Shown here piece after piece: positions 865-21,313 of a DNA stretch of 30,536 nucleotides (position 1 is its first letter; each line of letters starts with the position of its first letter). Source of the stretch: a virus (taxonomy: Duplodnaviria > Caudoviricetes); the IMG/VR virus record IMGVR_UViG_3300017911_002356, positions 1 to 30,536 of that record; one strand, 5' to 3'. The notes under the pieces are model-generated. The model saw nothing but the letters and a program-made list of their open reading frames with translations. It searched no databases and had not been told where the DNA came from. The translations under genes and the position numbers were made by a program.

Positions 865-893
865 TTGACAAGTGACGATAGTTGTGATATAAT
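865..893 (+). promoter_or_regulatory. Consensus sigma-70 promoter
   Basis: TTGACA (865-870), 17-nt spacer, TATAAT (888-893); upstream of ORF 929 and tRNA-Leu. Confidence 0.85.
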
Positions 894-928
894 AGCGTAA
901 TTGGACTGACTTAACAAAGAGGATTGAG

Positions 929-1180
929 ATGAAAAGAAAACGATGTTCGGATGAAGATTTTTTGGATGCTGTTTATTCAAGTTCTAGTTATGCCGAAATT
1001 TCTGAAAAGACAGGACAGAAACTTTCTACAACAATGGCTAGATATGTTAGGACAAAAAATATACTAGCAGACCGTGGGATCTATTTGCCAAAAATGCAAA
1101 GAAAAAAACCTGTGAGAGCAAATAATATAGATAAAATGGTTGAGAAAGCCAGACTATTGCAAAGTCATTACAAATCATAG
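929..1180 (+). CDS. Small basic hypothetical protein, possible HTH DNA-binding protein
   Basis: 83 aa, GAGG RBS; 'SYAEISEKTGQKLSTTMARY' resembles helix-turn-helix spacing. Confidence 0.6.
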   Translation: MKRKRCSDEDFLDAVYSSSSYAEISEKTGQKLSTTMARYVRTKNILADRGIYLPKMQRKKPVRANNIDKMVEKARLLQSHYKS

Positions 1181-1199
1181 GATAAGGGAGTGGCCCAAA

Positions 1200-1283
1200 G
1201 CCGAAGTGGTGGAATAGGCAGACACAACAGACTTAAAATCTGTTGCTCATTTGGGCGTGTGGGTTCAAGTCCCACCTTCGGCA
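1200..1283 (+). tRNA. tRNA-Leu (anticodon UAA)
   Basis: Acceptor GCCGAAG/CTTCGGC, D-loop GG, anticodon arm ACAGA-CTTAAAA-TCTGT (TAA at 1234-1236), long variable arm, T-arm GTGGG-TTCAAGT-CCCAC, discriminator A; CCA not encoded. Confidence 0.95.
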
Positions 1284-1315
1284 TTATTGTATAACCTAAA
1301 CATGAAGGATAGCAC

Positions 1316-1639
1316 ATGGGATACGACGGAAAATTAGTTAATTCACATACTCCAAACCATCATAATACTAAGTCTTACTTTCAGGCTTTTGAGATTATTA
1401 CCTGTAGAGAGATTTCAGATTATGAGGGTGGTACTATTATTCAAGAGATTAAAACAGCGGAAGAATTCTTAAATGCTGATGAATTTGCGGTTGATCAACC
1501 ATTTTACAGAGTATTTGGGATCTATAAGCCAGAGTACTATAAAACAAGAAAAGCATTAGGAGATTTTTATAATGTGACTGATGCCTCTATTTTTATTGAA
1601 GAAATTACGGGAGTTCCCGTACATATCTACTCTTATTAA
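1316..1639 (+). CDS. Hypothetical protein
   Basis: 107-aa ORF with AAGGA RBS. Confidence 0.7.
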   Translation: MGYDGKLVNSHTPNHHNTKSYFQAFEIITCREISDYEGGTIIQEIKTAEEFLNADEFAVDQPFYRVFGIYKPEYYKTRKALGDFYNVTDASIFIEEITGVPVHIYSY

Positions 1640-1715
1640 TTCTAACAAACTTCTAACAATTTATCCTTGCCGAAATGAGTATTATAAGATATTCAATCAA
1701 GGCTCACTGTGAGTC
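1640..1715. promoter_or_regulatory. Candidate regulator binding sites: 11-bp-period direct repeat and imperfect palindrome
   Basis: TTCTAACAA at 1640-1648 and 1651-1659; GGCTCAC-T-GTGAGTC at 1701-1715. Confidence 0.35.
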
Positions 1716-1754
1716 TCCCGCCAAATAATCCCTCCAAAGCAAGAGAATATTAAT

Positions 1755-2150
1755 ATAAGAAATATTTTTACTGCACTCGTCCTAGCATCTGTTCTACTTA
1801 CTGGTTGTGGTCAAAGCATTAAGTATAAACCTTTAGAGCAAGTAAGAGGCAAAGTTTTATTGCCAAAAGGTGAACCTCTAGAGGGAGGTAGTATTATGCT
1901 AAAAAGAAAAGACAGTAGAGGAACCTTCTTCCTTGCAGAAATTAATAAGGATGGAACTTTTGAAGTAGATAATGAAATAATCCTAGAAGGCGATTATGAT
2001 ATTTATCTAGTATTTAAACGTACTACAGCAGAACGTAAGTATATTAAATACGTTCCAGCAAAGTATCATGAAATTGGAGAGGGCGATTCTGATATCTCTG
2101 TTACCTTAACTGAAGATAATCAAGACATTGTAATTAAACTTAAAGCATAG
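1755..2150 (+). CDS. Lipoprotein, carboxypeptidase-regulatory-like fold of the type common in Planctomycetes; no canonical start codon for the signal peptide
   Basis: Frame open upstream of the listed TTG start (1860): (I)RNIFTALVLASVLLTG-C lipobox, then 'VRGKVLL..GEPLEGG.I...EINKDGTF...GDY.I...VPAKY...S.ISVTL'; in-frame TGA at 1710-1712, no ATG; ATA at 1755 is the best start. Confidence 0.7.
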   Translation: MRNIFTALVLASVLLTGCGQSIKYKPLEQVRGKVLLPKGEPLEGGSIMLKRKDSRGTFFLAEINKDGTFEVDNEIILEGDYDIYLVFKRTTAERKYIKYVPAKYHEIGEGDSDISVTLTEDNQDIVIKLKA

Positions 2151-2153
2151 ATA

Positions 2154-2708
2154 ATGATTAATCACGATTATTTGGTAGACACTAGTTGGTGCGACTCTGG
2201 TGGATATTGCGATTTCCTGCCCATCAGAGGCCACCAAAATTTGGGTTTTAAATCTTTTAAGAATAAAACTAGGGCTAAAAAATCTCTGATTAATCAGCTT
2301 ATACTAAATAAGTTTGATTTTGCTCCTTCTGTTCTCACGCCACTCTGTAAAATAGCATACTGGTATGACCCAGAACTTTTAAAAACATGGACTCCTAGCG
2401 ACACTGTGACCAGTTGGGGCTATGTGACAGAGAAGGCTGTTCTATTTGATATTGATACTAAAATTCCATACAGGAAAATACAAAATTTAGTAGATAAGAT
2501 TAGAGAGAAAACAGGATTAAAGTTTTGGGATTGTCATATGAACAATATGGGCTACATTAAGAGAGGACAGAATAAAAAACTGGTATGCATAGATACTGGA
2601 TATGAAAGTTTTGAAGGATATTCAAATGCATGGGGATTTGAAGAACCGGGGCCAAAATGTCCCTACTGTGAAAAGTATAATTGTAAATGTCCTACTGTTT
2701 ATGACTGA
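2154..2708 (+). CDS. Atypical protein-kinase-like protein with C-terminal Cys cluster
   Basis: 'GFKSF' Lys, '[10 protein letters not shown]' (DxHxxN catalytic loop), 'VCIDTG' (DxG); C-terminal CPYC..YNCKC. Confidence 0.6.
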
Positions 2709-2719
2709 AAGGAAAGGTT

Positions 2720-3142
2720 ATGTCTCAATGTTTATTGTTTGACATTAAAAAAGAAGAGTGTGGTAAAGATCAAACAAATACAAAAAAATGCACAAAATGC
2801 CACGAATATAAAAATGAGGAAGAGTTTTCTTGGCGTGGTGGAGAAAATTACAGGAGAACAGAATGTAAGGAGTGTCTAAAAAAAATGGCCTCGCAGGCCA
2901 AAAAACTTAGGGAGATTCACGGAGATGCGCCAGATGATTATGTTTGTCCCATTTGTGAAAAGGGAATTGTCGAGGTAAAAGGACAAGGAGGAAAAAGAAA
3001 TAAGACTTGGGTTGTGGATCATAATCATATAACAGATAAGTTCAGAGGATGGTTATGTCATAAGTGCAACAGAGGTCTTGGTGCGTTTAATGATGATGTT
3101 ACACTATTAAAAAAAGCAGTACAATATTTAGATAAGGAATAG
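2720..3142 (+). CDS. Endonuclease VII domain protein
   Basis: CPIC...[23 protein letters not shown] motif; N-terminal CxxC pairs. Confidence 0.85.
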
Positions 3143-3150
3143 GTGTCATA

Positions 3151-3465
3151 ATGCCATATATTAAAGACGAAGCAAGAATATTTCTGGATGAATGTATTGA
3201 AAATATGACTCAATGCTTAACAGAGGGTAATGAATTAACAGACGAAGAATTTTTATCTATTTTAGGAGAAATTAACTACACTTTTAGTAGGATTGTTGCT
3301 GGTAGCATGGGCAAGGTTTCGTATTCCAAAATAGCCATGATTACTGGTGTATTAGAAAATATAAAACAAGAATTCTATCGTAGAATTGCATCACCATATG
3401 AAGATATAAAAATACTTCAAAATGGTGACATCCGAGAATATCTGAGGTTTAAAAATGGCAGATAA
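3151..3465 (+). CDS. Conserved phage hypothetical protein (MPYIK...KQEFYRR...PYED...NGD family)
   Basis: Recognisable motif pattern; GGTG RBS. Confidence 0.75.
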   Translation: MPYIKDEARIFLDECIENMTQCLTEGNELTDEEFLSILGEINYTFSRIVAGSMGKVSYSKIAMITGVLENIKQEFYRRIASPYEDIKILQNGDIREYLRFKNGR

Positions 3466-3730
3466 AGAAATTAATGAGCTAATTAAAAAAATTGAAAAAA
3501 ACCATAAAGACCTATTGACTAAGTATAATGTTCTAGTTAAAAGAACTAGCAGTATTATTACTACATTGGCTACCTTAAACGATAAATTGGATTATCTTGT
3601 TGAAACAATGTCTATGTTTGAACTAGTGGAAGAAGATGGTGATGCGGAAGAATATGAGGAATATTTTAGTCAATACGAAGATTCAGAAGATGACGATGAT
3701 GACGATGAGCATGGCAGAGGGTACGATTAA
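3455..3730 (+). CDS. Hypothetical coiled-coil protein with acidic tail
   Basis: 91 aa, heptad-like N-terminus, D/E-rich C-terminus. Confidence 0.7.
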   Translation: MADKEINELIKKIEKNHKDLLTKYNVLVKRTSSIITTLATLNDKLDYLVETMSMFELVEEDGDAEEYEEYFSQYEDSEDDDDDDEHGRGYD

Positions 3731-3741
3731 AAGATTAATGC

Positions 3742-3770
3742 TTGACAAGCCTAGTAGCCGATGGTATACT
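3742..3770 (+). promoter_or_regulatory. Sigma-70 promoter for rIIA/rIIB
   Basis: TTGACA (3742-3747), 17 nt, extended -10 TGnTATACT (-10 at 3765-3770). Confidence 0.85.
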
Positions 3771-3812
3771 TAGGCTATCACAGGACAATTTTCTTTTTTG
3801 GAGACTACACAG

Positions 3813-6437
3813 ATGAAACTTGCAGATCGCACCGTTGAAATTCACAGTCGAGGCATGGACAGTGCTAATCAGTTCACCATCGCCCAGACTAGCAAAATGT
3901 TTAAAATCCTTTCAGATTCTCTATATTCTGATAAGGTTATGGCAGTTATTAGAGAACTGTCTACTAATGCTTACGACGCTCATATTGCAGCAGGCAACAA
4001 GAATCCTTTTAAGGTAACTCTGCCTACCGCATCTAACCCTAACTTTACGGTGAGAGATTATGGTACTGGACTTTCTCAAGAGGACATGGAAGAACTCTAC
4101 ACGACTTATGGGGCTAGTAATAAGAACGACAGTAACGATTTTACTGGTTGTCTTGGTCTTGGTTCTAAGAGTCCATTTGCTTATACTAAGAGTTTTAGTA
4201 CCACTTCTTACTTCAATGGCAAAGCGTACAACTACATAGCGGCTATGGACGAGAACGGTGTGCCTAGTCTCAACCTATTCGGAGTCACTGAAACTGATGA
4301 GCCTAATGGTCTTGAAATTAGTTTTGCCGTAAAGCAGTATGATTATCAAGAGTTTAATCAGAAGGCTAAGAGAATATACCACTACTTTAAAACAAAGCCT
4401 ATTGTAGAAGGTTCGGTTGATTCTGATATGCAGGATCACTCTTACTCTTACCACAATTATGTGATTGATGGTGACGGTTGGAAGGTTGGTCGATTGTCTG
4501 GAGATAGTGGTCAATTTCCTTCGTCGCATCATAATGCTGGTGGAGTTGTTGCAGTCATGGGTAACATTGCGTACCCAGTTAGTGCCGATAAGATTATTGG
4601 TGAAGAAGAAGAAACGACAAATAGCAATATCCAAAAGTGGAATCGAACTTTCAGAAGGGCAGATGTTGACAACTGGAAGAACCTAGTCAGAGAGATTCTT
4701 AATGCTGGCCTATATCTACAAATCCAATTTGATATTGGCGAATTGGAGATGGATGTTAGTCGAGAAGGTTTGCAGTACACCAAGGGTGTGATCAATGTGC
4801 TGCGTAAAAAGACTCAAGAAATTTATCTGCAACTAAAAGAAGATATGACTACAAAGATTGCAGAATGTAAGACTCTGGTACAAGCATATCAGACATATTA
4901 TAGTCTAAGCGATCTTGCTGGCGGGTATAGTGCAGGTGCTAGTTGGACTGATCCTGAAGGCAAAAAGCATGAACTGTCTAGTGGTGTAGACCTTGAATAT
5001 AAACTAGGTAAGCACAAACAACTATATGCAATGAATTTTAGGTCTGGCACACATCGTAGTCGCAGGCTTGTTTATCTCACAGATAAAATCCATAGCGAAA
5101 CTCTAAACGGCAAAGGCAGTAATTACTACTGGAACGCATCAACTAGAAAAGATAAGATTGTATTTTTCCAGTGTGATACCAGAAGTGCTGAGAGTGCCAA
5201 GAAGATAGTCACCAAGTATTGCAATCTCAATAATTGTTTTGGCTATCTTATGATTGATAGCGAAAATCCTGAGACTGATTCTGGCAAGGGTTTTGACGAT
5301 CTCATTAAGGATGTTGGTGCTGATAATATTCTCAAGGTTTCAGACTATCGTAGTCTAATGAGGTCTGGGACTCGCAAAAGCGGTGGAACCTCTGGTAGAA
5401 TTAGTGCTGATGAAATCTTTATTATCTCAAACTCTAAAGATTGTGATAGTCATTGTAACCGCCTGTCTGGCAAAGCCCTTAATGATTCTGACCATCTTAG
5501 AGAATTGTCTGAAGAATTGCTTAGTGGTCTAGAGGATAGTGACCAGATTCTATATATTCCAATGACTAGATATGCGGCAGAAGAAGGCCATATCAGTATC
5601 TTTAATGTATATAGAAGGCTGTTGCATAAGGAAGAAAATAATTTACTCACTAAGATTTGCAAAAATAAGAATGTGTTTGCAATCAAGAAGGCTTCTGTAG
5701 CCAAACTCAAGAAGCAGGGATATAATCTTGTAGACTTTACCAAGTGGCTTAAGCCTAGAGTAGAGCATCTTGTGCAAAAGATTTCCAAGGCAACTGCCAA
5801 GTATGAGGCCATCATGGATTATTGTCAAGATCAATATAGTTCCAATGATGAATCTTGTACAACCAGATGGCATAGAACTTTTACAGACAGAAGGATAGCA
5901 TACCATGTTGTCAATATGTGTGGATTGAACTATCGAGAGATTATTCAGAACTCTAAACTGTCGGATCTTATTGACCAGTGGATGGTGATGGAATTTTTCA
6001 CTAACCATGTCATGGGAGATGAGAAGTTCAAGAGTATTAAAAAGGATGATTATCTTGCCCATATGACAAAGATTTTACATAAGTATGATCTGAATGGTTG
6101 CGATCCAGCCAAGATTAAAGACAATCATGTAAAACTAGTCAGTCTTTATACACAGATTCAGACGGTATATGGTTCATACGATGAATTTGACGTATCTGTA
6201 GATGTGTCGGAATATACCAGCAAGATTGGAAAAATGTCAGACCTGAGAAAAAATCTTCAAGCAGAGGTTGACAAATCACCGATGCTCAAGTATATTGTTA
6301 GTGCGGTCGATGTAGAAAGCATACGAGTGATCGGAAGAAAACCATTGGAATCAGACGGTTACTATGGATTCAAGAGTGACTGGTATGACAAGAATGATCG
6401 TGAAGGTTTGGGTAAGGATTTAGGGAAATTGGTTTAA
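3813..6437 (+). CDS. rIIA: rIIA-like protein (N-terminal GHKL ATPase)
   Basis: 'ILSDSLYSDK..AVIRELSTNAYDA', 'RDYGTGLS', 'GASNK', 'GCLGLGSKSPFAY', 'SREGL'; ATG at 3813 follows GGAG RBS; adjacent to rIIB. Confidence 0.9.
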   Translation: MKLADRTVEIHSRGMDSANQFTIAQTSKMFKILSDSLYSDKVMAVIRELSTNAYDAHIAAGNKNPFKVTLPTASNPNFTVRDYGTGLSQEDMEELYTTYGASNKNDSNDFTGCLGLGSKSPFAYTKSFSTTSYFNGKAYNYIAAMDENGVPSLNLFGVTETDEPNGLEISFAVKQYDYQEFNQKAKRIYHYFKTKPIVEGSVDSDMQDHSYSYHNYVIDGDGWKVGRLSGDSGQFPSSHHNAGGVVAVMGNIAYPVSADKIIGEEEETTNSNIQKWNRTFRRADVDNWKNLVREILNAGLYLQIQFDIGELEMDVSREGLQYTKGVINVLRKKTQEIYLQLKEDMTTKIAECKTLVQAYQTYYSLSDLAGGYSAGASWTDPEGKKHELSSGVDLEYKLGKHKQLYAMNFRSGTHRSRRLVYLTDKIHSETLNGKGSNYYWNASTRKDKIVFFQCDTRSAESAKKIVTKYCNLNNCFGYLMIDSENPETDSGKGFDDLIKDVGADNILKVSDYRSLMRSGTRKSGGTSGRISADEIFIISNSKDCDSHCNRLSGKALNDSDHLRELSEELLSGLEDSDQILYIPMTRYAAEEGHISIFNVYRRLLHKEENNLLTKICKNKNVFAIKKASVAKLKKQGYNLVDFTKWLKPRVEHLVQKISKATAKYEAIMDYCQDQYSSNDESCTTRWHRTFTDRRIAYHVVNMCGLNYREIIQNSKLSDLIDQWMVMEFFTNHVMGDEKFKSIKKDDYLAHMTKILHKYDLNGCDPAKIKDNHVKLVSLYTQIQTVYGSYDEFDVSVDVSEYTSKIGKMSDLRKNLQAEVDKSPMLKYIVSAVDVESIRVIGRKPLESDGYYGFKSDWYDKNDREGLGKDLGKLV

Positions 6438-6464
6438 GGTTTTTTAATCACAGGAGTTTTAATA

Positions 6465-7310
6465 ATGAGCGTTCCTTTTATGTGGGTTGACGGTAATTTG
6501 ACGGTGATCTTGGCTAACAAGGCTCACCAAGTTCTTCCAGATCATACAAATTACAAGTTGATTCTGGATTCTCTACCAACCGCAACAGAAGATGAGTTGC
6601 TGGGATTGGTAGACATTGAAAAAGCAGTTGCAAATTATAGCAACGGTCAGGTTGAAGTTAAGAACGGGCGAGTTCTCTTTGAGGGCGAAGAAGTTCATGG
6701 AAGTATTAGTAAGCGAATTCTAGAGTTTATGAGCAAGGGTCTACCTTTTGAGCCGCTCGTAAATTTCTTGAAGAATCTTATGGAGAATCCAAGTATGCAG
6801 AGTCAGACTGAACTGTATGATTTCTTGGAGCATGAAAATCTTCCTATCACTGAGGATGGACATTTCCTTGCATACAAAGCAGTCCGTAGCGACTTCAGGG
6901 ACAAGTGGAAAGGTGAGTTTGACAACAGGGTAGGTCAGGTCTGCACAATGCGTCGAGCAAAGGTGGACGATAATCGCTCAGTGGGATGCTCTCAGGGACT
7001 TCATGCTGGTGCATTGAACTATGTGGCATCATACGGAAGTGTTGAGGCTGGCGATAAGATCGTTATCGTTAAGATCAATCCTCAAGATGTTGTGAGTGTT
7101 CCTAGCGACTGTAATTGCGAGAAACTTCGTACTTGCAGATATGAAGTAGTCGGTGAATATCAGGGCGAATTGCTCAAGCCTCTTTACAAGAGCGAGTTTG
7201 CTGAAGATGAATACCACGACGATGAAGATGATAACATCTACGACCAGTATGATGAAGATTACTGGGATCAGTATGATGAAGATGACGAAGAAGAATACGA
7301 TGATTATTGA
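6465..7310 (+). CDS. rIIB: rIIB-like protein
   Basis: 'NLMENPS...ELYDFL...LPITEDGHFLAYKAV', 'CSQGLH', 'KINPQDVVSVP.D...KLRTCRYEV'; acidic tail; AGGAG RBS. Confidence 0.92.
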   Translation: MSVPFMWVDGNLTVILANKAHQVLPDHTNYKLILDSLPTATEDELLGLVDIEKAVANYSNGQVEVKNGRVLFEGEEVHGSISKRILEFMSKGLPFEPLVNFLKNLMENPSMQSQTELYDFLEHENLPITEDGHFLAYKAVRSDFRDKWKGEFDNRVGQVCTMRRAKVDDNRSVGCSQGLHAGALNYVASYGSVEAGDKIVIVKINPQDVVSVPSDCNCEKLRTCRYEVVGEYQGELLKPLYKSEFAEDEYHDDEDDNIYDQYDEDYWDQYDEDDEEEYDDY

Positions 7311-7323
7311 TTCTGTGATTGGA

Positions 7324-7369
7324 AGGGTGAGCATTTTGGGCTATGGCGGTTCGATCCCGCCGCATCCTC
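7324..7369 (+). ncRNA. Mini tRNA-like element (acceptor stem plus T-arm, no D or anticodon arms)
   Basis: T-arm GGCGG-TTCGATC-CCGCC (7345-7361); AGGGTGA (7324-7330) pairs 6/7 with GCATCCT (7362-7368); only 14 nt between them. Confidence 0.55.
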
Positions 7370-7387
7370 TGATAAGTTCTGTGTAGG

Positions 7388-7416
7388 TTGACTTTGAAGT
7401 GGCTACGGGGTATAAT
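7388..7416 (+). promoter_or_regulatory. Sigma-70 promoter
   Basis: TTGACT (7388-7393), 17 nt, TATAAT (7411-7416). Confidence 0.75.
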
Positions 7417-7463
7417 GTAGTAGTCTGTTGTACCTCATAGCCCTTCCTTGTCTGGAGAATGCA

Positions 7464-7859
7464 ATGAATCAAGAACCTGAATATGAAGATTATGATGATG
7501 ATGAACACAACTACTACCCAGAATATAATGAATATGGATATCCTAAAGACTTTAAAATAGATTGGGTTGCTTGGGAAAAATGGCTAAAAGCAGCAATGCA
7601 GGATATTGTATTCAATGATAATGGAGAGTGGATCGTATCATCTGGATATCTCCCGAACAAGCAACAGAATAAAGAAAACGAAATATCGCAAAAGTTTTTA
7701 TATTTTGGACAAAATCAATACGATGAGTCTATATGGAAATATAAATGTTTTATATCAAATTACTTTGATCAGCAATATAGAAATCACTTTATGTCACACG
7801 CATCTCACATTGTTAGACAACCAGTATATTATCGTGGTATGTTTGATATGTTAAACTAA
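7464..7859 (+). CDS. Hypothetical protein with acidic/Tyr-rich N-terminus
   Basis: ATG at 7464 after GGAG RBS, in frame with the listed ORF 7428..7859. Confidence 0.7.
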   Translation: MNQEPEYEDYDDDEHNYYPEYNEYGYPKDFKIDWVAWEKWLKAAMQDIVFNDNGEWIVSSGYLPNKQQNKENEISQKFLYFGQNQYDESIWKYKCFISNYFDQQYRNHFMSHASHIVRQPVYYRGMFDMLN

Positions 7860-7868
7860 AGGAATATA

Positions 7869-8303
7869 ATGAAAAATAATGGAGACTGGCTAGAAATTTC
7901 AGATATAAATAAATTTACTGACTATATTAGAAATATTGTATATATAAATTTTAAAGATGAAGATATAGATGAAGAAAACTATATAGTAGATATTAATGAT
8001 AGTTTTGAATCTCTAACTAAAGAAGAAATAGAAGAACTTGAAAGTGTCCTTGATAAAAAAGAATGCATTAATATAATCAAGGAGACTTCAAGAAAGATGA
8101 GACATAAAAAAACAAAGAAAATTAAGTACTTGATGGATGATAAGATACTCTATGATATTATAGAAAATATTAACCAAAGAATGGTTAGTAATATCATTAG
8201 TAATTTGGTGAAAAAGGGTTTACTTGAATCCGCTTTTGATGAAGAAAAGAACGACTTTATATTTTGGACAAAGGAAAATAAAGATGGCAACTCACAGACC
8301 TGA
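7869..8303 (+). CDS. Hypothetical phage protein
   Basis: 144 aa, AAGGA RBS; C-terminal 'LVKKGLLESAFDEEKNDFIFW'. Confidence 0.75.
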   Translation: MKNNGDWLEISDINKFTDYIRNIVYINFKDEDIDEENYIVDINDSFESLTKEEIEELESVLDKKECINIIKETSRKMRHKKTKKIKYLMDDKILYDIIENINQRMVSNIISNLVKKGLLESAFDEEKNDFIFWTKENKDGNSQT

Positions 8304-9180: not shown

Positions 9181-9185
9181 TAATA

Positions 9186-9195
9186 GGTGTATATT
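9186..9195 (+). promoter_or_regulatory. GGTGTA motif, candidate phage-specific promoter
   Basis: Intergenic GGTGTATATT, 44 nt before ATG 9230; the hexamer recurs in other intergenic gaps. Confidence 0.5.
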
Positions 9196-9229
9196 CTAAT
9201 ATAGGAAACTATATCGGAGTACTTCTATT

Positions 9230-11182: not shown

Positions 11183-11218
11183 CAACCCATGCATAATATA
11201 TAGACCTGTATGAGATAT

Positions 11219-11255
11219 TGTCAAGTCTTGACAGCAGAAAAAAAAATTATATAAT
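11219..11255 (+). promoter_or_regulatory. Sigma-70 promoter whose -35 lies in a 15-bp inverted repeat
   Basis: TGTCAAG-T-CTTGACA (11219-11233); TTGACA 11228-11233, 16 nt, TATAAT 11250-11255. Confidence 0.7.
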
Positions 11256-11275
11256 GTTAGAGAAAGGGAAATACT

Positions 11276-11681: not shown

Positions 11682-11685
11682 TAAA

Positions 11686-12192: not shown

Positions 12193-12249
12193 TGGATTAT
12201 TATTATTTTCTTTGTTTTTGTATTATAGCAAAAATGATTGGTAGTTTTT

Positions 12250-12792
12250 ATGAAGATAGTCAATAGACTAAAGGGCCAGCGGGTTTATCTTGCTGGTGCG
12301 ATGGATCGTGTTCCTGACAGGGGTTCTTCTTGGAGGCAAAAAATAACGCCTTTCCTTGAAGAATTAAATATTATTGTTTTTGATCCACTAAAAAAACCTG
12401 GCACAGTTGGGCTTGAAAATGAAGAAACACATCTTCTCAAAAAACAACTAAAATCAACAGGACAATATGATCAATTAGCAGAAATAATGAAAACGATTCG
12501 CTCTGTTGATCTTAGGTTAGTAGACATTAGCGACTTTTTGATTGTTCACTTAGATATCGAAACTCATCCTTGCGGTACTTTAGAAGAAATATTTCTTGCT
12601 AATAGACAAAAGAAACCTATAATAGTTCATATAGAACAAGGTAAACAAAATTGTCCAGACTGGTTGTTCGGCACCATCCCTCATAATTTGTTCTTTGATG
12701 AATGGTCTCAAATTATAGAGTATTTATACACTATCAATAGCCAGCAAAATATAAATACTTTAAATAGATGGTGGTTTTTAAATGAAGATTAG
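12250..12792 (+). CDS. Nucleoside 2-deoxyribosyltransferase-like protein
   Basis: 'VYLAGAM', 'FDP', 'DLRLVDISDFLIV', 'GTLEEI..A....KPII'. Confidence 0.8.
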   Translation: MKIVNRLKGQRVYLAGAMDRVPDRGSSWRQKITPFLEELNIIVFDPLKKPGTVGLENEETHLLKKQLKSTGQYDQLAEIMKTIRSVDLRLVDISDFLIVHLDIETHPCGTLEEIFLANRQKKPIIVHIEQGKQNCPDWLFGTIPHNLFFDEWSQIIEYLYTINSQQNINTLNRWWFLNED

Positions 12793-13528
12793 AAAAAATA
12801 TTTGCGCCTTAATACAAGGACCATTAGATGACAGGACTTATGAAGCAATAGACTGCTATCAAGATTTCGGTGAAGTTATTGTTTCCACATGGAAAGGTGA
12901 GGACCTATCTTTACTAGATAAAGCCAAAGGTAGGTTTACGCTCATAGAAAATATATATCCAGATGCAATGCAAACCATCAACAATCATGGTCATAGATAT
13001 TTTATGGCAAGAACTATATTAGGAGGTGCAGTTAAAGCAAATTTTAAATACGTTATGAAGACTAGAACCGATGAGTTATATCCTAATCTGAATAGTCTTT
13101 TAGCAAACTTTGATATGTATCCACATAAAACACATACCACAGACAATGGTTTCTGGAAATCTATACCATTCTGTTTTTCTAATCATTTATTTATAGAAGA
13201 TAGAGACAAACTTATTAGTGCTTGCCAATTTTTAATAGATCATTGCGAAGGCAAAGACCATCAAGACGTTAAACTAGACACGCCAGAACAGGCTTTTGGA
13301 TGGGCTTTAATGAAAGCCAGAAATTTTAAGATAGATAGAACAAATTGGAGACCTATATTCAAGGATAATATTTTTATAACGCCGTGCAAATTATTACCAG
13401 AACATTTACATTCTGGTGGTAGTTATTACAATACCATTCCATTTAAAAGGGCTACCAACTATCCTTGGGGTAGACCAGACGGCCATCAAGTAGATCAATT
13501 ACATCAAAGCCACCTAGAATTCAAATGA
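12782..13528 (+). CDS. WavE-like LPS/glycan biosynthesis protein
   Basis: 'LIQGP', 'EVIVSTW', 'YVMKTRTD', 'PEQ' motifs resemble the WavE family. Confidence 0.6.
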   Translation: MKIRKNICALIQGPLDDRTYEAIDCYQDFGEVIVSTWKGEDLSLLDKAKGRFTLIENIYPDAMQTINNHGHRYFMARTILGGAVKANFKYVMKTRTDELYPNLNSLLANFDMYPHKTHTTDNGFWKSIPFCFSNHLFIEDRDKLISACQFLIDHCEGKDHQDVKLDTPEQAFGWALMKARNFKIDRTNWRPIFKDNIFITPCKLLPEHLHSGGSYYNTIPFKRATNYPWGRPDGHQVDQLHQSHLEFK

Positions 13529-15213
13529 AGATATTAGATTGTACATTGAGAGATGGGGGCTATTATACCAACTGGACTTTTACAGATAGTCTAGTTAGAA
13601 ATATGGTCAAAACACTTGACAACAACAATGTTTCTATTATAGAACTTGGATACAAATCTCCCAAAAAAGGAGGAGCATACAGAAAGTGTAATGACGGATA
13701 TATTAGTAGCATAATTGACTTCAAAACTAAAGCAAAATTGTCTTTTATGATTGATGCAAAAGATTTCGTTAATAATGATGAATCTGTCAATGTGACTCTT
13801 TTACAAGATTGCATCAAAGATTTCAACACCTCTCCTTTTAGTGTGTGTAGACTAGCAATAAAATTTACTGAAATCAAGCAAGCAAAAACTATTGCTCAGT
13901 TTATTACGGATAAAGGGTATGACCTTTTTGTTAATATCATGGGGTCTTCTCTTTTAACAGAATGTCAATTTGTTGACTTTATTACAAATATGAATCACTA
14001 TGCGTCATCACTATATTTTGCAGACTCATATGGCAATCTAACTCCTGATTCTGTAAGAAAAATTTGTAATATTTTCATAAAATCCACAATATTATCATGT
14101 GGTATTCATTGTCACGATAATTTAGGTCTAGCATTTGCCAATAGTCTAGAGGCTTTGAAGTCAGGGTTTTCTTATGTGGACGGAACAGTTTGCGGGATGG
14201 GTAGAGGAGTTGGCAATACAAGAACAGAGCAACTTCTTCTTTATTCTCAAGATAAATTAACCCCAGAACTACTAGAACTAATAAAACAGTTTGATGTACT
14301 TAAACATAAATATAATTGGGGATTTAATTCTCTTTATATGGTCGCTGGCATGAGCCACACACACCCATTACTTGCACAAGACTTAACATCTTCTGGACTT
14401 GGAGCAAAATCATTAGCAAATGCCATCAATTCACTGAGAGGAGAAAAGACATACAATAAAAAACTATTAGAAAAAATTACGCAACAAAAAGTAGCTGTGG
14501 TTATTCCAGCAAGATATAAGTCCTCTAGATTTCCAGGGAAGCCTCTAGCAAAAATAAATGGTAAAGAAATGATATTGCATGTAGCAGATAAATGTTCTGA
14601 AGCAGTTGGTAGTGAAAATGTATATGTCGCTACAGAGAACGATGAGATATCATCAGTAGTCAAGAAAGCTGGCTACCATGTAATTTTAACATCTGATAAT
14701 TGTTTAACAGGAACGGATAGAATAGCGGAAGCCTGCTTAGAAATAGATGCAGATATATTAGTTAATGTGCAAGGCGATGAACCTATGATAAATCCAAAGG
14801 ACATACTAAGAGTAGTAAAATGTAAACAAAATAATCCTAACGCTGTAATTAATTGTATGTCTAATTTAAATCATGATGAAGATTATAACGATAAAAAAAT
14901 ACCAAAAGTAGTTTGTGATAATAATAATTATTTACTCTACTCTAGTCGTAATGCTTTACCGGGAAGTAAAAATGGTATTAGTAAAAATGTTAAAAAACAA
15001 GTTTGTATATATGCATTTAATAAATCAGAACTATTACAATTCCATACTCAGAAAGATAAGTCACCACTAGAGCATCAAGAAGATATCGAGATATTAAGGT
15101 TTATAGAAAATGGCATTCCAGTAAAAATGCTTGAAGTAGATCATATATCTTATGCTGTTGACTATCCAGAAGATATACAACTTATTGAAAGTAAATTAAA
15201 TGTCTCATCTTAA
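13525..15213 (+). CDS. kdsB: Fusion: HMGL-like (DRE-TIM) aldolase plus CMP-Kdo synthetase (KdsB-like)
   Basis: N-term ILDCTLRDGGY, YFADSYG, GIHCHDNLGLAFAN, GMGRGVGN; C-term VIPARYKSSRFPGKPL, TGTDRIAE, NVQGDEP, EDIEILRF, VDYPED. Confidence 0.9.
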   Translation: MKILDCTLRDGGYYTNWTFTDSLVRNMVKTLDNNNVSIIELGYKSPKKGGAYRKCNDGYISSIIDFKTKAKLSFMIDAKDFVNNDESVNVTLLQDCIKDFNTSPFSVCRLAIKFTEIKQAKTIAQFITDKGYDLFVNIMGSSLLTECQFVDFITNMNHYASSLYFADSYGNLTPDSVRKICNIFIKSTILSCGIHCHDNLGLAFANSLEALKSGFSYVDGTVCGMGRGVGNTRTEQLLLYSQDKLTPELLELIKQFDVLKHKYNWGFNSLYMVAGMSHTHPLLAQDLTSSGLGAKSLANAINSLRGEKTYNKKLLEKITQQKVAVVIPARYKSSRFPGKPLAKINGKEMILHVADKCSEAVGSENVYVATENDEISSVVKKAGYHVILTSDNCLTGTDRIAEACLEIDADILVNVQGDEPMINPKDILRVVKCKQNNPNAVINCMSNLNHDEDYNDKKIPKVVCDNNNYLLYSSRNALPGSKNGISKNVKKQVCIYAFNKSELLQFHTQKDKSPLEHQEDIEILRFIENGIPVKMLEVDHISYAVDYPEDIQLIESKLNVSS

Positions 15214-15883
15214 CATAAGACATGCTGGTGGTATTGGCGACGGCATAATGTTTTCTGCAATAGTAAAGGATTATGCCAAAAAAAATGATACAGTTAGTGT
15301 TGTCCCAGATTCCTCATTATGTAAAGATATTTTCAGTCTGATATATGCAAATTATCCTAATATTAAATTGAATTTAGTTATAGATGCTCCTACTATACGA
15401 ATAGAATTTAAAGATGCGGTTGAAAATAAATATTGGAGAACTCTAGATTGGAAACAGGATCAAGAATTAGAAGATAAAATATATGAAGAGATAGTCTCTA
15501 AATTTGGTAAAAATTACTTAGTGATCCATGAACGACAAACTGATAACTGCGGCAGGAAACTAAGATTGCTGGAGCGTAAATATTTTTCACCAAACACACC
15601 GTATATTAATTTAGATGCAACATGGTTAAAAAATAATGGTATCACACCACATAATATTCTCCACTATAGAAAAACAATACATAATGCTCAACAAGCACAT
15701 TTTTATGAAGGCAGCTTTATGAACTTCACCGACTGCATATGTATTAAAAACACAAAATTATTTGCACACCTATATTGCAAGCCACATCTTTTTAACACAT
15801 CAATGGTACACAATCAAATTATTCAATACATCCAAAGCAATAAATGGCATAAAAACAAATGGAACTACATTTATGAAAACTGA
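15200..15883 (+). CDS. Hypothetical protein, possible glycosyltransferase
   Basis: N-terminal 'GGIGDGI' glycine motif seen in GT-B enzymes; glycan-locus context. Confidence 0.5.
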   Translation: MSHLNIRHAGGIGDGIMFSAIVKDYAKKNDTVSVVPDSSLCKDIFSLIYANYPNIKLNLVIDAPTIRIEFKDAVENKYWRTLDWKQDQELEDKIYEEIVSKFGKNYLVIHERQTDNCGRKLRLLERKYFSPNTPYINLDATWLKNNGITPHNILHYRKTIHNAQQAHFYEGSFMNFTDCICIKNTKLFAHLYCKPHLFNTSMVHNQIIQYIQSNKWHKNKWNYIYEN

Positions 15884-16553
15884 AATAATTAAAAATGAAT
15901 ATGGTATTTTTGAGTGTTTTTCTAATGATAGACATATCACTAAACACATAAAACAAAATAAAATATTTCACCCAACACTATACCATTGGATAAAAAACTA
16001 TTTAGAAGGAGACTTATTGGACATAGGTGCCAATATAGGATGCTACTCTATTCCAATAGCTAAGGAATTTAAAAATTATAAAGTGCATTCAGTAGAAGCT
16101 CATCCTGAAATCTTTGGTGTTTTAAATCATAATATTGTTCTTAATAAGCTAGATAATATGACAGCATACAATTTTGGTGCCCTAGATAAAGAACAAACAT
16201 TATTTTTACAACCACTAAAAGATATAGATAATTTTAATACCGGAGACATGAGGTTGTCATCCCAAAAATCCAACATTCCTATCAATTGCTTTCGTTGTGA
16301 TAATAAAATTAATGATATCGAGTGTTCTGTTATAAAAATCGATGCACAAGGATCGGATTATGAAGCATTACTTGGTTGTGAAAAAATAATTGACAAACAT
16401 AGACCATGTATTATTATAGAATGGGAACAACATATGGTTGCGACCAATACCTCTATAAAAGATGTAATTAAATATTTACAAAAATTTAACTACATACTGA
16501 AGGAAACATATATGAGAGATTTTTTATTTACCAGAAAAAATAATCATGATTAA
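15873..16553 (+). CDS. FkbM-family SAM-dependent methyltransferase
   Basis: LDIGANIG, VEAHP, IKIDAQGSD..AL.G, P.IIIE; ATG at 15873 in frame with the listed ORF. Confidence 0.9.
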   Translation: MKTEIIKNEYGIFECFSNDRHITKHIKQNKIFHPTLYHWIKNYLEGDLLDIGANIGCYSIPIAKEFKNYKVHSVEAHPEIFGVLNHNIVLNKLDNMTAYNFGALDKEQTLFLQPLKDIDNFNTGDMRLSSQKSNIPINCFRCDNKINDIECSVIKIDAQGSDYEALLGCEKIIDKHRPCIIIEWEQHMVATNTSIKDVIKYLQKFNYILKETYMRDFLFTRKNNHD

Positions 16554-16929
16554 AATTGAAGTTCCAATAGGAGATATCTTTGATAAAATGTCTATATTAG
16601 AAATTAAGGCATCTAAGACCAAAGAAGCAGATAAAATAAAAAATATAAATAAAGAATTAAACTACATAAAGAAACAATGTCATAATCTAATATCTACAGA
16701 TAACCAAGAATTAATACTATTATACTCTGACCTTAAAGAGACAAATCAAAAACTTTGGGATATTGAAGACAATATTAGAATTAAAGAAAAAGAAAAAAAA
16801 TTTGATGATAGTTTTATATCTCTTGCAAGATCAGTATATTTGACTAATGATCACAGAGCAGATATCAAGAAAAAAATCAATTTATTATTAGGATCTAAAT
16901 TTATAGAGGAAAAAATATATAATGATTAA
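16546..16929 (+). CDS. DUF6165-like protein
   Basis: 'V.IGDIFDK.SILEIK', 'LWDIEDNIR', 'LARSVY.TND.RA.IK..IN...GS...EEK.Y'. Confidence 0.8.
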   Translation: MIKIEVPIGDIFDKMSILEIKASKTKEADKIKNINKELNYIKKQCHNLISTDNQELILLYSDLKETNQKLWDIEDNIRIKEKEKKFDDSFISLARSVYLTNDHRADIKKKINLLLGSKFIEEKIYND

Positions 16930-17605
16930 TTTTGATAATTTTGATACTTTCGATTATCCATATCCCTACATGTCTACAGATCATTGTTTTTCAGAAACAG
17001 ATTTAGAGGCTCTTATCAATGAATTCCCAGATGTTACCAGTGGTAATTTAGTTATGGGAGGAAGAAGACAAAGAGATGCAAAGTCACTAAATGAATGGAT
17101 CAACAATGCCCCAACATGGAAAAGATTTTATGATTTTTTAAATACTAAAGATCGATTTGACAAAGTTACACAACAATATTCTGATGAATTAAAAAAATGG
17201 CAATCTATAATTACAGAAAACTCAGGACCAACAACAGATAGTTTTTTACACATAGATTGGTCTGAAGCAGGAGATGGTTACGTCAGAGAAATTCACAGAG
17301 ATACCGATCCTAGAATATGGAATTTTATTATTTTCTTTAATGATAAAGATTGGGATGGTGGAGATTTTATCATACATAGTTCTGATAGCTTAAAAATATT
17401 TCCTCGTCAAATTTTTGACAAAGAACTGCCGATTCATAAAACAATAGAAGCTAAAAAAAATAGAGCTATTTTTTTCCTTTCTACTCCAAATTCATATCAC
17501 TCCGTTTCGGTGCAGAAAAATACCATAACTCCTAGAAAATTTATATATGGTGCTTATACTATGAAAAATAACATAGATGTATTTAAAAAAAGATATATGT
17601 TTTGA
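16922..17605 (+). CDS. 2OG-Fe(II) oxygenase
   Basis: HRD iron ligands, 'WDGGDF', 'NRAIFF...NSYHSV', distal R. Confidence 0.85.
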   Translation: MINFDNFDTFDYPYPYMSTDHCFSETDLEALINEFPDVTSGNLVMGGRRQRDAKSLNEWINNAPTWKRFYDFLNTKDRFDKVTQQYSDELKKWQSIITENSGPTTDSFLHIDWSEAGDGYVREIHRDTDPRIWNFIIFFNDKDWDGGDFIIHSSDSLKIFPRQIFDKELPIHKTIEAKKNRAIFFLSTPNSYHSVSVQKNTITPRKFIYGAYTMKNNIDVFKKRYMF

Positions 17606-17606
17606 A

Positions 17607-17999
17607 ATGAATATCAACGATTATAATATTTTACAAGCATCGGAAAACAGTCAACAACTAGCTATAGATTTTGATGGTGTTATACATAAAAATTCTAAAG
17701 GATTTTATGATGGCACTATTTACGATGATCCAGTTGATGGTGCAATAGATGCTTTAAAAAAACTATCTGAACGATATAAAATCATAATTTTTACAGCAAA
17801 AGCAAAAACCGATAGACCACTATTAAATGGCAAAACAGGCAAAGAATTGGTGTCTGAATGGTTGGATAAGCATGGATTATTAGAACATGTAACAGATATT
17901 ACTAGTGAAAAACCTCGTGCTATTGCATATATAGACGATAAAGCAATAGAATTTATTTCATGGCCACAAACTATAGGAAAAATCAATGAAATCACTTAA
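17607..17999 (+). CDS. HAD-superfamily phosphatase
   Basis: IDFDGVI (DxD), IFTA, KP.A.AYIDDKA. Confidence 0.85.
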   Translation: MNINDYNILQASENSQQLAIDFDGVIHKNSKGFYDGTIYDDPVDGAIDALKKLSERYKIIIFTAKAKTDRPLLNGKTGKELVSEWLDKHGLLEHVTDITSEKPRAIAYIDDKAIEFISWPQTIGKINEIT

Positions 18000-19074
18000 T
18001 TATATAGCCCCTATCAACAATACCACTGGTTATGGAATTACATCTACTAATATTTTAAAATCAATAATAAAAAATACTAACAACGACTTATATCTTTTTC
18101 CTTTGGGAGCAATAGGGGTAGATGGTCCTAGTGAAAAACAAGTATTAGAAAGTTTACTACATAAAACACAATTAAATTTTGATAAAACTGCGCCATGTTT
18201 TAAAGTATGGCATCCACATGATTTATCAATGAGTGTTGGGAAAGGCAAGTATGGGGCTTTAATATTTTTTGAGCTAGATACAATTAAACAAATAGAAAAA
18301 ACACACATTAATAATCTTGATGTCGTATTTGTAGCAAGCAAATGGGGTAAAAGAGTTCTTGAAAATAACGGAATAACTACGAAAATTGTAGTGTCACCTC
18401 TTGCTGTTGATACTGATGTTTTTAAAGACCATGAACACCCAAAACAATTTACAAATGACACATATAAATTTATTAATATCGGCAAATGGGAAATTAGAAA
18501 AGGTCATGACTTTGTATTAGAAGCATTTAATAATGCTTTTACAGAAGAAGATGATGTTGAATTATTTATGATAAATCAAAATCCCTTTCTTTCTGCACAA
18601 GAGAATCAAATCTGGGTTGATATGTATAAAAATAGTAAATTAGGCAATAAAATTATGCCTATCGCTAGAGTCCCAACCCATCTAGCTTTGGCAAAAGTCA
18701 TTAGAGATATGGATTGTGGCTTTTTCCCAGCAAGAGCAGAAGGATGGAACAATGAAATCCTTGAAGTAATGGCATTAAACAAGCCCGTAATTACCACTAA
18801 TTATTCTGCTCATACAGAATATTGTACTAAAGACAATGCCTTTTTAATAGATATTGATGAACTTACTGTTGCTGAAGATGGAAAATTCTTTAATGGAGAA
18901 GGAAAATGGGCAGATCTTGGAGAAAAACAAATGGAACAAACTGTAGAGTATCTTAGAAAGGTGTATAAAGAAAATATCAAGACCAATCCCCAAGGGTTGC
19001 AAACTGCTAAAAAATACACCTGGGATAATACAGCCTCTATAATTACAAAGGAGATGTTCAATGCCTCTGCCTAA
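17986..19074 (+). CDS. Glycosyltransferase family 4 (GT-B)
   Basis: TGYG, GKWEIRKG, PARAEGWN..ILEVMALNKPVITT, YTWD. Confidence 0.9.
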   Translation: MKSLNYIAPINNTTGYGITSTNILKSIIKNTNNDLYLFPLGAIGVDGPSEKQVLESLLHKTQLNFDKTAPCFKVWHPHDLSMSVGKGKYGALIFFELDTIKQIEKTHINNLDVVFVASKWGKRVLENNGITTKIVVSPLAVDTDVFKDHEHPKQFTNDTYKFINIGKWEIRKGHDFVLEAFNNAFTEEDDVELFMINQNPFLSAQENQIWVDMYKNSKLGNKIMPIARVPTHLALAKVIRDMDCGFFPARAEGWNNEILEVMALNKPVITTNYSAHTEYCTKDNAFLIDIDELTVAEDGKFFNGEGKWADLGEKQMEQTVEYLRKVYKENIKTNPQGLQTAKKYTWDNTASIITKEMFNASA

Positions 19075-19576
19075 ACATAAAAGCGGTGAAGATAGAAATA
19101 AATTCGTAAGTCGCTGTATGAGCGATCCTATGTCCAAGAAAGAATTTCCAGACACCAAACAAAGAGTAGCATATTGTGTTAAAGAAGCCCGTGAAGGGGC
19201 TAAGTCATCTTTAATACAAGACGTACACGATGAACTATTAACCTCCCAAGCCACTTGGGACGACGAATGCGATGAATGGACATGGGAAGTGGTGGCAGAA
19301 ATGATATATGATGAAGACGGCAATGCTCTTGGAGCCGAATATCAAGGTAGAAAGGTAACATTAAATAAACCTTTCCTTACTCCAGACGGACCAAAGAAAA
19401 GAAGTGTTTATGTTAAAAACGACAAAGGGAATGTTGTTAAGGTCAATTTTGGCGATCCTAATATGAAAATAAAAAAGAGTGATCCTGCTAGAAGAAAATC
19501 CTTTAGAGCTAGACACAATTGTGATAATCCTGGACCAAAGTATAAAGCTCGTTATTGGAGCTGCAAGTTCTGGTAG
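19061..19576 (+). CDS. Phage protein with C-terminal DUF6321-like domain
   Basis: 'FVSRCM' N-module; 'VKVNFGDPNM.IKKSDPARRKSFRARHNC...KARYWSCKFW'. Confidence 0.7.
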   Translation: MPLPKHKSGEDRNKFVSRCMSDPMSKKEFPDTKQRVAYCVKEAREGAKSSLIQDVHDELLTSQATWDDECDEWTWEVVAEMIYDEDGNALGAEYQGRKVTLNKPFLTPDGPKKRSVYVKNDKGNVVKVNFGDPNMKIKKSDPARRKSFRARHNCDNPGPKYKARYWSCKFW

Positions 19577-19585
19577 AACAATACA

Positions 19586-20272
19586 ATGAGTCTTATAAAT
19601 CATATTCAAAAAGCTTTAGCAGAAAAAATAGATCAAATTGATAGTCTAAAATATAAGCAAAATTATGACTATATAACAACGCCATCTGCTAATATTGCTT
19701 TCCCTGAATTGGGAGATATCAATCTTTTCGCTATTGTTAACCAACCAAATAAAAATTCTAGTCCAGAAACTAAAAAAGAATTAGACTATGTGGCCAATCG
19801 AGCTAATAATAGGACTATAGAGGAAGTTCAATTAGTATATAATGTAGACGAAGATCCTATGTTTTTATACGAACCAATTATTGAAAAGTTTAAGCTAGAT
19901 TTCCCTTATCATAAATTTAATACAATATACGAGAACATAGTCTCGCCTCTTATAGACCACTTAAAAAACTATTATAATAGAGCCAGACCATTTCAGTTAG
20001 CAGAATTATACAATATAAAAATCGATAGAATCATAACAAAAACCCACCACACCCCATCATATCCTAGCGGCCACACAATGTATGCTGCTCTAATTTCTGA
20101 AATTTTATCTGCTATTTATCCCGAAAAAAAGAGTATTTTTGAAGATCTAACACAAAAAACAGCACTTGCTCGTGTATTACAGGGTGTACATTATCCTTCT
20201 GACAATGAAGCATCAGTAAAAATAATTCAAACAATTTATCCAAAATTAAGTGAATATTATGAGAAAATATGA
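19586..20272 (+). CDS. PAP2-superfamily phosphatase/haloperoxidase-like protein
   Basis: K..YNRARP, PSYPSGH, ARVLQGVHYPSD motifs. Confidence 0.88.
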   Translation: MSLINHIQKALAEKIDQIDSLKYKQNYDYITTPSANIAFPELGDINLFAIVNQPNKNSSPETKKELDYVANRANNRTIEEVQLVYNVDEDPMFLYEPIIEKFKLDFPYHKFNTIYENIVSPLIDHLKNYYNRARPFQLAELYNIKIDRIITKTHHTPSYPSGHTMYAALISEILSAIYPEKKSIFEDLTQKTALARVLQGVHYPSDNEASVKIIQTIYPKLSEYYEKI

Positions 20273-20681
20273 CATTTTATCTGACATAAATAAATCTTTG
20301 TCTAGCGAAAACGAAACTCCAGAAATGGAACTAGAAGAATACAAGCAAGATTTTCTTGAAATGAATATCGGTTCTCTTAATGCTATTATGAGACATGCAC
20401 AAGAATTATTAAATTCTCTTGGCGACGAATCAGTAAAAAACAACTTGACAGAAAGCTGGCTACAGGGTAAAATAGCAATAACAGAGGATTACATGAGAAC
20501 AATTCATGATTTTGTAAAGTATGTACCCTCAGATGACGATAATACTTTTGCTGCTGATAAGCCAGGACTCTGGGAAAACATTAGAAAGAAAAGAGAAAGA
20601 GAAGGAAAAAAATATCGACCAGCAAAGCCTGGAGATAAAGATAGGCCAGACCCAGAGGCTTGGAAAAAAGCACAAAAGTAA
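20250..20681 (+). CDS. Hypothetical phage protein with basic C-terminal module
   Basis: 'ESWLQGKI...EDYM'; 'KPGLWENIRKKRER...PGDKDRP'; start may be ATG 20259. Confidence 0.7.
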   Translation: MNIMRKYDILSDINKSLSSENETPEMELEEYKQDFLEMNIGSLNAIMRHAQELLNSLGDESVKNNLTESWLQGKIAITEDYMRTIHDFVKYVPSDDDNTFAADKPGLWENIRKKREREGKKYRPAKPGDKDRPDPEAWKKAQK

Positions 20682-20692
20682 TTTGCTTTTTT
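20664..20692 (+). terminator. Weak possible terminator
   Basis: AAAAAAGCA (20664-20672)/TGCTTTTTT (20684-20692) inverted repeat; AT-rich stem. Confidence 0.25.
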
Positions 20693-20719
20693 AGATTTAC
20701 ATTTTAGAGGACTTTAAAT

Positions 20720-21313
20720 ATGGATAATAAAGAATATAAGGATCTTGTTGAATATATTGATATGGCTAAAAAGACGATTAGGGCATTTTCTAATAGAATT
20801 TGCCCAGGAATCTGTAATCAAATGAGCAATAGTGAAGATGCTATTGCTGATATTGCTTATGCTATGATGCAAGCAGATTGGAAGTATGATAAAAACAGAA
20901 AAGGTAAGCAAAGCAACCAATCAAAAAGTCAGTATTCTTACAGAAATCAATGTGCTATTTGGGCAATACAAACATATATCAAAAAATATCTACGAACAAA
21001 TAAAACTGTCTATTTAAATAATATACTCTCTTCTGAAGATAGTACAAGTTTTTGTGATATCTTAGAGGACATGAATCAGAAAGAACCTGTAGATTATGTC
21101 TTGCAGCAAGAAAAAACACACCTAGAATCACAACTTGTAAAAGATATTTTTGATTCAGATTTACTTAATGACACACAAAAGGATAAGCTAAAACTTTATT
21201 ATATCGATGGTTTAAGTTTAGCGAAGATAGGGAAAAGATATGGTATTACTAGAGAAGCTGTTAGACAAAATATAAAAAATTCTATTGACAGGATACGGGA
21301 GAGTTTTGTATGA
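20720..21313 (+). CDS. Sigma-70-family RNA polymerase sigma factor-like protein
   Basis: Region 2-like 'AMMQADWKYD...YSYR..CAIWAI'; region 4 HTH 'LYYIDGLSLAKIGKRYGITREAVRQ'; GAGG RBS. Confidence 0.8.
   Translation: MDNKEYKDLVEYIDMAKKTIRAFSNRICPGICNQMSNSEDAIADIAYAMMQADWKYDKNRKGKQSNQSKSQYSYRNQCAIWAIQTYIKKYLRTNKTVYLNNILSSEDSTSFCDILEDMNQKEPVDYVLQQEKTHLESQLVKDIFDSDLLNDTQKDKLKLYYIDGLSLAKIGKRYGITREAVRQNIKNSIDRIRESFV

Follow-up and report, generated by a model that had tools for sequence, protein, structure and literature searches.

Can a phage time its own genes with a sense codon? The question is raised by IMG/VR virus record IMGVR_UViG_3300017911_002356 (Caudoviricetes), a 30.5-kb stretch (hereafter the window) with a GC content of 34% and every long open reading frame (ORF) on the plus strand, as are all features located below. 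It encodes a tRNA-Leu(UAA) at positions 1200 to 1283, with a long variable arm and without an encoded CCA (Rfam, 61.8 bits). An earlier note on this DNA had proposed a switch like that of Streptomyces bldA, in which early genes avoid UUA, whereas a phage sigma factor and later genes are rich in TTA and wait for the phage tRNA. We found that such an on/off switch is not supported: a timer specific for UUA finds no support, since several codons are depleted and the sigma-factor gene shows neither an excess of TTA nor a conserved TTA. Judged from sequence comparison, the tRNA most likely serves as an ordinary top-up of supply for a GC-richer host. It is quite probable that early or abundant genes are tuned to host tRNAs and that the phage supplements the tRNA pool, a known phage strategy, and general host-codon adaptation, which the earlier note had listed as its own caveat, gave the best fit.

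TTA usage inside the window

Codon statistics for the window were taken over 53 ORFs chosen by hand. The counts of TTA among leucine codons in the earlier note proved exact: 0/6 for ORF 929 (929-1180), which encodes a small conserved protein without a Pfam or PHROG family, 0/25 for rIIB (6465-7310, with ATA at 0/10), 7/13 for the DUF6165-like ORF 16546 (16546-16929) and 5/14 for the phage sigma-factor-like gene (20720-21313), whose first TTA is at about codon 98. Its estimate of three among roughly 65-70 for rIIA (3813-6437) became 3/68 on recount, with these codons at 611, 755 and 870, in the last third only. The identities of rIIA, rIIB and the sigma-factor-like gene are backed by both PHROG and Pfam. 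Outside rII, with the sigma gene included, TTA made up 273 of 668 leucine codons (41%). Against this background the depletion went beyond chance in rIIA (P 5e-12) and rIIB (P 2e-6), the only TTA-poor genes of the window. ORF 929 by itself was marginal (P 0.04), and 68 distinct homologues of it, when pooled, had TTA at 23 of 291 leucine codons. Third-position GC content (GC3), against which the earlier note had wanted TTA to be checked, was ruled out as the sole cause of the dip, since a fit on non-leucine GC3 predicted TTA fractions of 0.30 for rIIA and 0.26 for rIIB (P 1e-7 and 5e-4 for the observed counts).

The complementary class of TTA-rich genes could not be found. The 50 leucine-containing genes outside rII were homogeneous in TTA use (chi-square P 0.16), which makes ORF 16546 (P 0.25) and the sigma gene (P 0.74) ordinary rather than TTA-rich. 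UUA is not confined to a small subset of genes, as TTA is the commonest leucine codon and occurs in 49 of the 53 ORFs. The six ORFs 3' of the tRNA (1316-3730) resembled the background as well (19/57, P 0.26), and ORF 7464 and ruvB do use TTA (2/4 and 11/32), as the earlier note had conceded. Together with ORF 7869 (1/9), these two stand behind a predicted sigma-70-type promoter at 7388-7416 that matches 11 of the 12 consensus positions. Late genes were likewise not enriched: DNA polymerase genes (34-44% TTA) and tape-measure genes (36-57%) were both at background, with no step between middle and late genes.

The perfect TTGACA-N17-TATAAT promoter reported upstream of the tRNA was confirmed at 865-893 (12/12, predicted, with an extended -10 TG and a CGATA-like word in the spacer), and the tRNA lies 300 bases further on, with ORF 929 between the two. 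Because the tRNA follows a promoter of the early type, no delay is apparent; its position would suggest early synthesis and gives no built-in delay. Further predicted sites of this type, each matching 11 of 12 positions, precede rIIA (3742-3770, with comparable sites before rIIA in the related contigs G001, G002, G003 and G009) and lie within rIIA, 5' of rIIB (6268-6296). A CGAT[AG] word was present at a varying place in the spacer of 50 of the 87 strong promoters of ten contigs, a count made without a shuffle control.

Codons avoided behind sigma-70-type promoters

The expectation that TTA would be depleted more than other A/T-ending codons was not borne out, since ATA, AAA and AGA fall equally across relatives. 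When rII was compared with the other genes of the window, AAA went down (31/93 vs 577/750) along with TTA (3/93 vs 273/668), ATA (5/60 vs 310/753), CAA (16/38 vs 234/286) and AGA (18/47 vs 217/316), and CTA, GCA and GTT were unchanged. The odds ratio in this comparison was lowest for TTA (0.05), but not significantly under that of ATA (0.13; P 0.26).

The same pattern appeared when genes were grouped by promoter class. In nine long related contigs we considered ATG-started ORFs of at least 60 residues with a homologue in another contig (others were dropped), and called a gene promoter-first when a strong sigma-70-type match lay no more than 130 bases upstream (n = 84). Expression class is thereby read from promoter motifs, with sigma-70-type promoters taken as probably early, and pooled P values are overstated since the contigs are mutually related. 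Assembled contigs of RNA runs contained just 6-9% of the sequence words and carry no information about timing, level or habitat. As the earlier note had expected, TTA content was linked to promoter class: it stood at 365/1620 in promoter-first genes versus 11177/25393, an odds ratio of 0.37 (interval 0.33-0.42). Comparable ratios were obtained for ATA (0.31), AAA (0.32), AGA (0.38) and CAA (0.56), followed by GGA (0.62), ACA (0.63) and GAA (0.68), and values for CTA, GCA, GTA, CCA and TCA were 0.89, 0.98, 0.79, 0.79 and 0.61, respectively. The 365 codons nevertheless amount to 23% of leucine in promoter-first genes, and with three TTA codons in rIIA and two in ORF 7464 the claim that early genes are free of UUA could not be upheld. 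With classes set without the tested codon, in ten contigs, TTA was the most depleted codon in the window, in G009 and marginally in G004, and ATA or AGA in the remaining seven. Six putative major capsid genes, identified through a phmmer match to a solved major capsid protein (E 2e-9), were also poor in these codons (TTA 44/200, ATA 2/88), which points to expression level as a factor besides timing.

The tRNA sets of the family mirror this list. The tRNA-Leu had been described as the only tRNA, which is correct within the 30.5-kb window, but this fragment starts 1.2 kb before the tRNA, and G009, which among the long relatives stands nearest to it (rIIB 97% and rIIA 88% identical), has five more around 13 kb upstream: Thr(TGT), Gln(TTG), Asn(GTT), Ile(TAT) and Lys(TTT), which together with a transfer-messenger RNA (tmRNA) occupy the stretch 9-13 kb upstream. 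The single-tRNA appearance of the window probably reflects a fragment. In G015, a contig with terminal repeats, tRNAs read TTA, ATA, AAA, AGA, CAA, GAA, GGA and ACA, in addition to Asn, Asp and Ser tRNAs; these eight codons are the most relevant of the depleted ones, and none of CTA, GCA, GTA, CCA and TCA is read (rank test P 0.008). In bacteria, the host tRNAs for CTA, GCA, GTA and CCA are shared with common G-ending codons, and the decoding of UUA, AUA and AGA relies on minor tRNAs. The split between depleted and spared codons would then arise because UUA, AUA and AGA need minor tRNAs. Two features of supplementation are seen here, namely phage tRNAs that read codons frequent in the phage (TTA and the G015 set, though not at the 11 Leu(CAA) sites described below) and genes behind host-type promoters that shun the same set of codons.

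We propose that mutational AT pressure loads the genome with A-ending codons, and that selection favours codons well read by the host in those genes that its polymerase transcribes first or whose products are required in large amounts; the codon pattern itself is observed, and selection is its presumed cause. The phage would supply tRNAs for codons that the host reads poorly, and most consistently Leu(UAA); the genes are present, and their function is deduced. The tRNA-Leu(UAA), which is probably transcribed from a promoter of this early class as well, would be charged, raise UUA decoding and in this way top up translation of the TTA-rich bulk of the genome. The outcome would be a graded translational efficiency over several codons, with no gate on one regulator.

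A GC-rich host would suit this scheme, and sequence evidence suggests that the host is likely a bacterium of the Planctomycetes-Verrucomicrobia-Chlamydiae (PVC) group, probably a planctomycete. Relatives of the phage encode DUF1559, DUF1501 and planctomycete cytochrome domains; the DUF1559 protein had four plasmid matches, all planctomycete, and a genome scan with the DUF1501 protein returned only two matches, both from Verrucomicrobiota. In three PVC stretches, which serve as proxies and not as the host itself, TTA accounted for 9/742, 17/569 and 11/425 leucine codons (1-3%), and ATA and AGA were rare too. No cultured phage exceeded 42% identity in rIIB.

The tRNA-Leu site and rival explanations

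A tRNA-Leu lies 3' of the ORF 929 homologue at 66 of 68 sites, 38 of them with a plain UAA tRNA, 17 with an intron-type tRNA and 11 with Leu(CAA); of the remaining two sites, one is empty and one falls at a contig edge. In 16 of the 17 intron types a five-pair stem and a UAA loop are restored across an insert of 196-210 bases, and Rfam scores one insert as a group I intron. G004, G016 and L056, considered as natural tRNA knock-outs, were rejected because in all three the usual site contains a tRNA-Leu(UAA) split by an intron. A relaxed ARAGORN run was mostly noise and was used solely for spotting the intron, and the whole-contig Rfam search for group I introns was a weak test, as Rfam missed that of L076. 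Group I-type inserts in the anticodon loop were noted in a quarter of the relatives (L076, at G004:56709-57001; L056, at about 3730-4010; L429; and 15 other loci), and a literature search on group I introns in phage tRNA-Leu(UAA) returned no phage case. The plain tRNA-Leu(UAA) of relatives mostly lacks a long variable arm (33 short, for example L013 at 3890-3964 and L038 at 2063-2136, and 5 long, among L205-L282).

The Leu(CAA) type forms a clade (L028, L065, L068, L210, L221, L254 and five more) at the same site, in which TTG makes up just 12-14% of leucine codons and rII is richer in TTA (121/982 vs 163/3490); one may speculate that its host differs or that the wobble base is modified. In three contigs with Leu(CAA) as the only visible tRNA, TTA stood at 45-51% and the early dip was kept (odds ratios 0.59, 0.21 and 0.27). 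The phage with the empty site (L233/L053) had TTA at 3/90 in rII and at 10/24 in downstream genes. These contigs, which are incomplete upstream, are suggestive evidence against a dependence on UUA supply. A complete Leu(CAA) genome was sought among G010-G012, which end 2-18 kb upstream of the tRNA, and G017, which extends G012-like DNA, had no tRNA match there; a UAA tRNA may still lie elsewhere.

Several observations weigh against the supplementation reading. The tRNA-Leu is retained far more strictly than the other tRNAs, which is the strongest reason to regard leucine decoding as a true bottleneck; simple supplementation of UUA would not explain the 11 Leu(CAA) sites. TTA is the most depleted codon in the window (0.08) and in G009 (0.10), against 0.21 for ATA, and in G001 it is more depleted (0.47) than ATA (0.63) or AAA (0.69). 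TCA is depleted though no tRNA matches it. Finally, G001 covers the early region yet shows only tRNA-Leu(UAA) and a tmRNA, in a contig that may be chimeric. The use of G001 and G002 as complete one-tRNA genomes is doubtful. Capsid and far-early markers are missing from G002, and G001 contains two capsid modules, at 6821-7831 and 148433-149446, that are 81% alike, suggesting a chimeric assembly; G002 and G004 are labelled CheckV 100% and have no capsid matches.

The best surviving rival is a de facto UUA gate, in which host tRNA-Leu(UAA) would be so scarce that TTA-rich genes (sigma, polymerase, virion) have to wait for the phage tRNA as in a codon timer; we consider it unlikely. A variant, in which the tRNA behind the first promoter, intron-split in a quarter of relatives, must splice or mature before the TTA-rich genome is translated, is likewise doubtful. 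A gate would account for the persistence, immediately 3' of an early-type promoter and ORF 929, of a tRNA-Leu that comes in several mutually unrelated sequences, and for the low TTA content of ORF 929 homologues (23/291, and 0/67 in the intron-bearing group), but those of L013 and L039 have 5/8 and 3/3. It has a parallel in phage Syn9, which is blocked by Leu(TAA) scarcity in Synechococcus WH5701 (excerpts of PMC11726456). The promoter-first genes, however, keep 23% TTA, the three contigs with only Leu(CAA) have the same early dip, and the pattern is unchanged at the site without a tRNA.

The sigma factor, as the proposed target of the gate, allowed a direct comparison among 81 homologues, 51 of them below 90% identity. 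Each of these 51 has at least two TTA codons, which would suit a gate, but the presence of TTA in all of them is expected by chance at the family rate. TTA use in these genes (283/787) was below that of their flanking genes (1332/3056), contrary to the claim that the sigma factor depends on a TTA gate. A conserved gating codon was not seen in the family: none of 16 leucine-rich alignment columns had more than 50% TTA, and the first conserved leucine was TTA in 5 of 46. No strong promoter was found within 130 bases before 50 sigma homologues; the sigma gene of G001 has one. A TTGACA at 20445 was not accepted as the promoter of the sigma gene in the window, as it sits in a conserved coding stretch.

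It is quite unlikely that the tRNA mainly replaces host tRNA-Leu destroyed during infection, by host anticodon nucleases or phage-driven degradation, with the codon pattern as a separate host adaptation. This idea is among the standing hypotheses in PMC12482277, and repeated swaps by unrelated tRNAs (short-arm, long-arm, intron-bearing and CAA) would fit turnover under conflict, as would the tmRNA that relatives also carry. Against this, no nuclease or tRNA-repair gene was recognised in the 53 window ORFs, and the tRNA sets correspond to the A-ending codons that are depleted, as expected under supplementation. It is very improbable that the codon usage of rII is a leftover of base composition after a recent transfer out of a genome richer in GC, without translational selection: although rIIA (0.39) and rIIB (0.43) have the highest GC among the long genes of the window's left half, the same bias lasts in rIIA homologues of 51-63% identity, CTA, GCA and GTT are unaltered, and codon-specific depletion in many unrelated, scattered promoter-first and capsid genes already contradicts it.

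Side observations, known systems and meaning

Directly 3' of the rIIB stop lies a predicted anticodon-less tRNA-like fold (7325-7367) with an outer stem, a small D-like hairpin and a T-arm with a TTCGA loop. The T-arm hairpin was present in 43 of 58 distinct rIIB 3' regions, whose 5' parts were very different. In 12 similar copies picked by hand, pairing holds in 92% of cells and throughout the T-stem (100%), where one position covaries in four pair types. The fold alone was no more stable than shuffles (z -0.06), had no family match in Rfam, and was not encountered in any paper found by our literature search. It is possibly a processing or 3'-end signal, a suggestion made from the predicted structure.

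Among the tRNAs of the family, the early clusters of seven relatives contained no tRNA named as Leu, and a tRNA assigned to Ser is seen there repeatedly, with ACT as its unusual anticodon (G004:19951-20037, G013, G014 and G015). A tmRNA lies 7-9 kb upstream of the Leu tRNA in relatives (G001:31331-31670, G009:11788-12142); its tags end in LALAA, and the G004 copy appears permuted. In the window, a lipoprotein-like ORF (about 1740-2150; ORF 1749) has a signal peptide without a preceding ATG, GTG or TTG, such that an ATT or ATA start is possible; its ten homologues bear no informative names. The stretch 12782-17999 is a glycan-modification-type gene block (WavE-like, HMGL-like fused to a cytidylyltransferase, FkbM methyltransferase and 2OG-Fe oxygenase) that is absent from five long relatives.

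The pattern has precedents. T4-like cyanomyophages supplement AT-rich anticodons, including Leu(TAA), according to Limor-Waisberg et al. (2011, PMC3152331); the present phages differ in belonging to another, uncultured family with a probable PVC host, in the sharply set-off group of codon-poor genes behind their sigma-70-type promoters, and in a tRNA-Leu site that stands apart and is strictly retained. Codon use differs between early and late genes in half of 14 phages (Mioduser et al. 2017, PMC5683454), and here too synonymous usage varies by expression class, probably in part as an adaptation to host tRNAs, with the class inferred in our case from promoter motifs. For phage Sf14, late-gene use of phage tRNAs has been argued (PMC12482277, in part), and the passages of PMC3014915 that were consulted did not deal with a T4 tRNA-Leu. 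In the Syn9/WH5701 system the codons concerned are likewise UUA, AGA and ACA, and whether phage proteins are made can depend on the supply of Leu(TAA); that work, as far as its excerpts go, describes passive host resistance by experiment and no phage timer, and the present case is known from sequence.

Regarding proper timers, S. coelicolor has just 147 genes with TTA, UUA is read by bldA alone, and the gating codon sits in regulators, adpA among them (portions of PMC2000904 and PMC10732093). The phage tRNA shares the bldA anticodon, and there is again a gene set without TTA; unlike in Streptomyces, however, TTA is the commonest leucine codon here, in 49 of 53 genes, and the sigma family yielded no conserved gating codon. 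Stop-codon recoding has been proposed as a late-gene timer (Borges et al., 10.1101/2021.08.26.457843, in part), and has in common with the proposed switch the idea of a phage tRNA that licenses late genes. In that system the codon can be read only with the help of the phage tRNA, and lysis and structural genes are enriched in it, whereas here a sense codon is involved and no late enrichment was seen. Neither a phage-encoded bldA-type switch nor the present phage family was found in our literature search, whose coverage excluded most subscription journals.

A phage timer based on a sense codon, if true, would carry bldA-type control over to viruses, but its specific predictions did not hold when tested here. 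What the family does offer is a clear illustration, across relatives, of a strategy already known, in that the codon avoidance of promoter-first genes mirrors the tRNA set of the family. Altogether, codon use is a convenient way to flag early genes, and gives a clue to the host, in an uncultured and probably planctomycete-infecting phage family.

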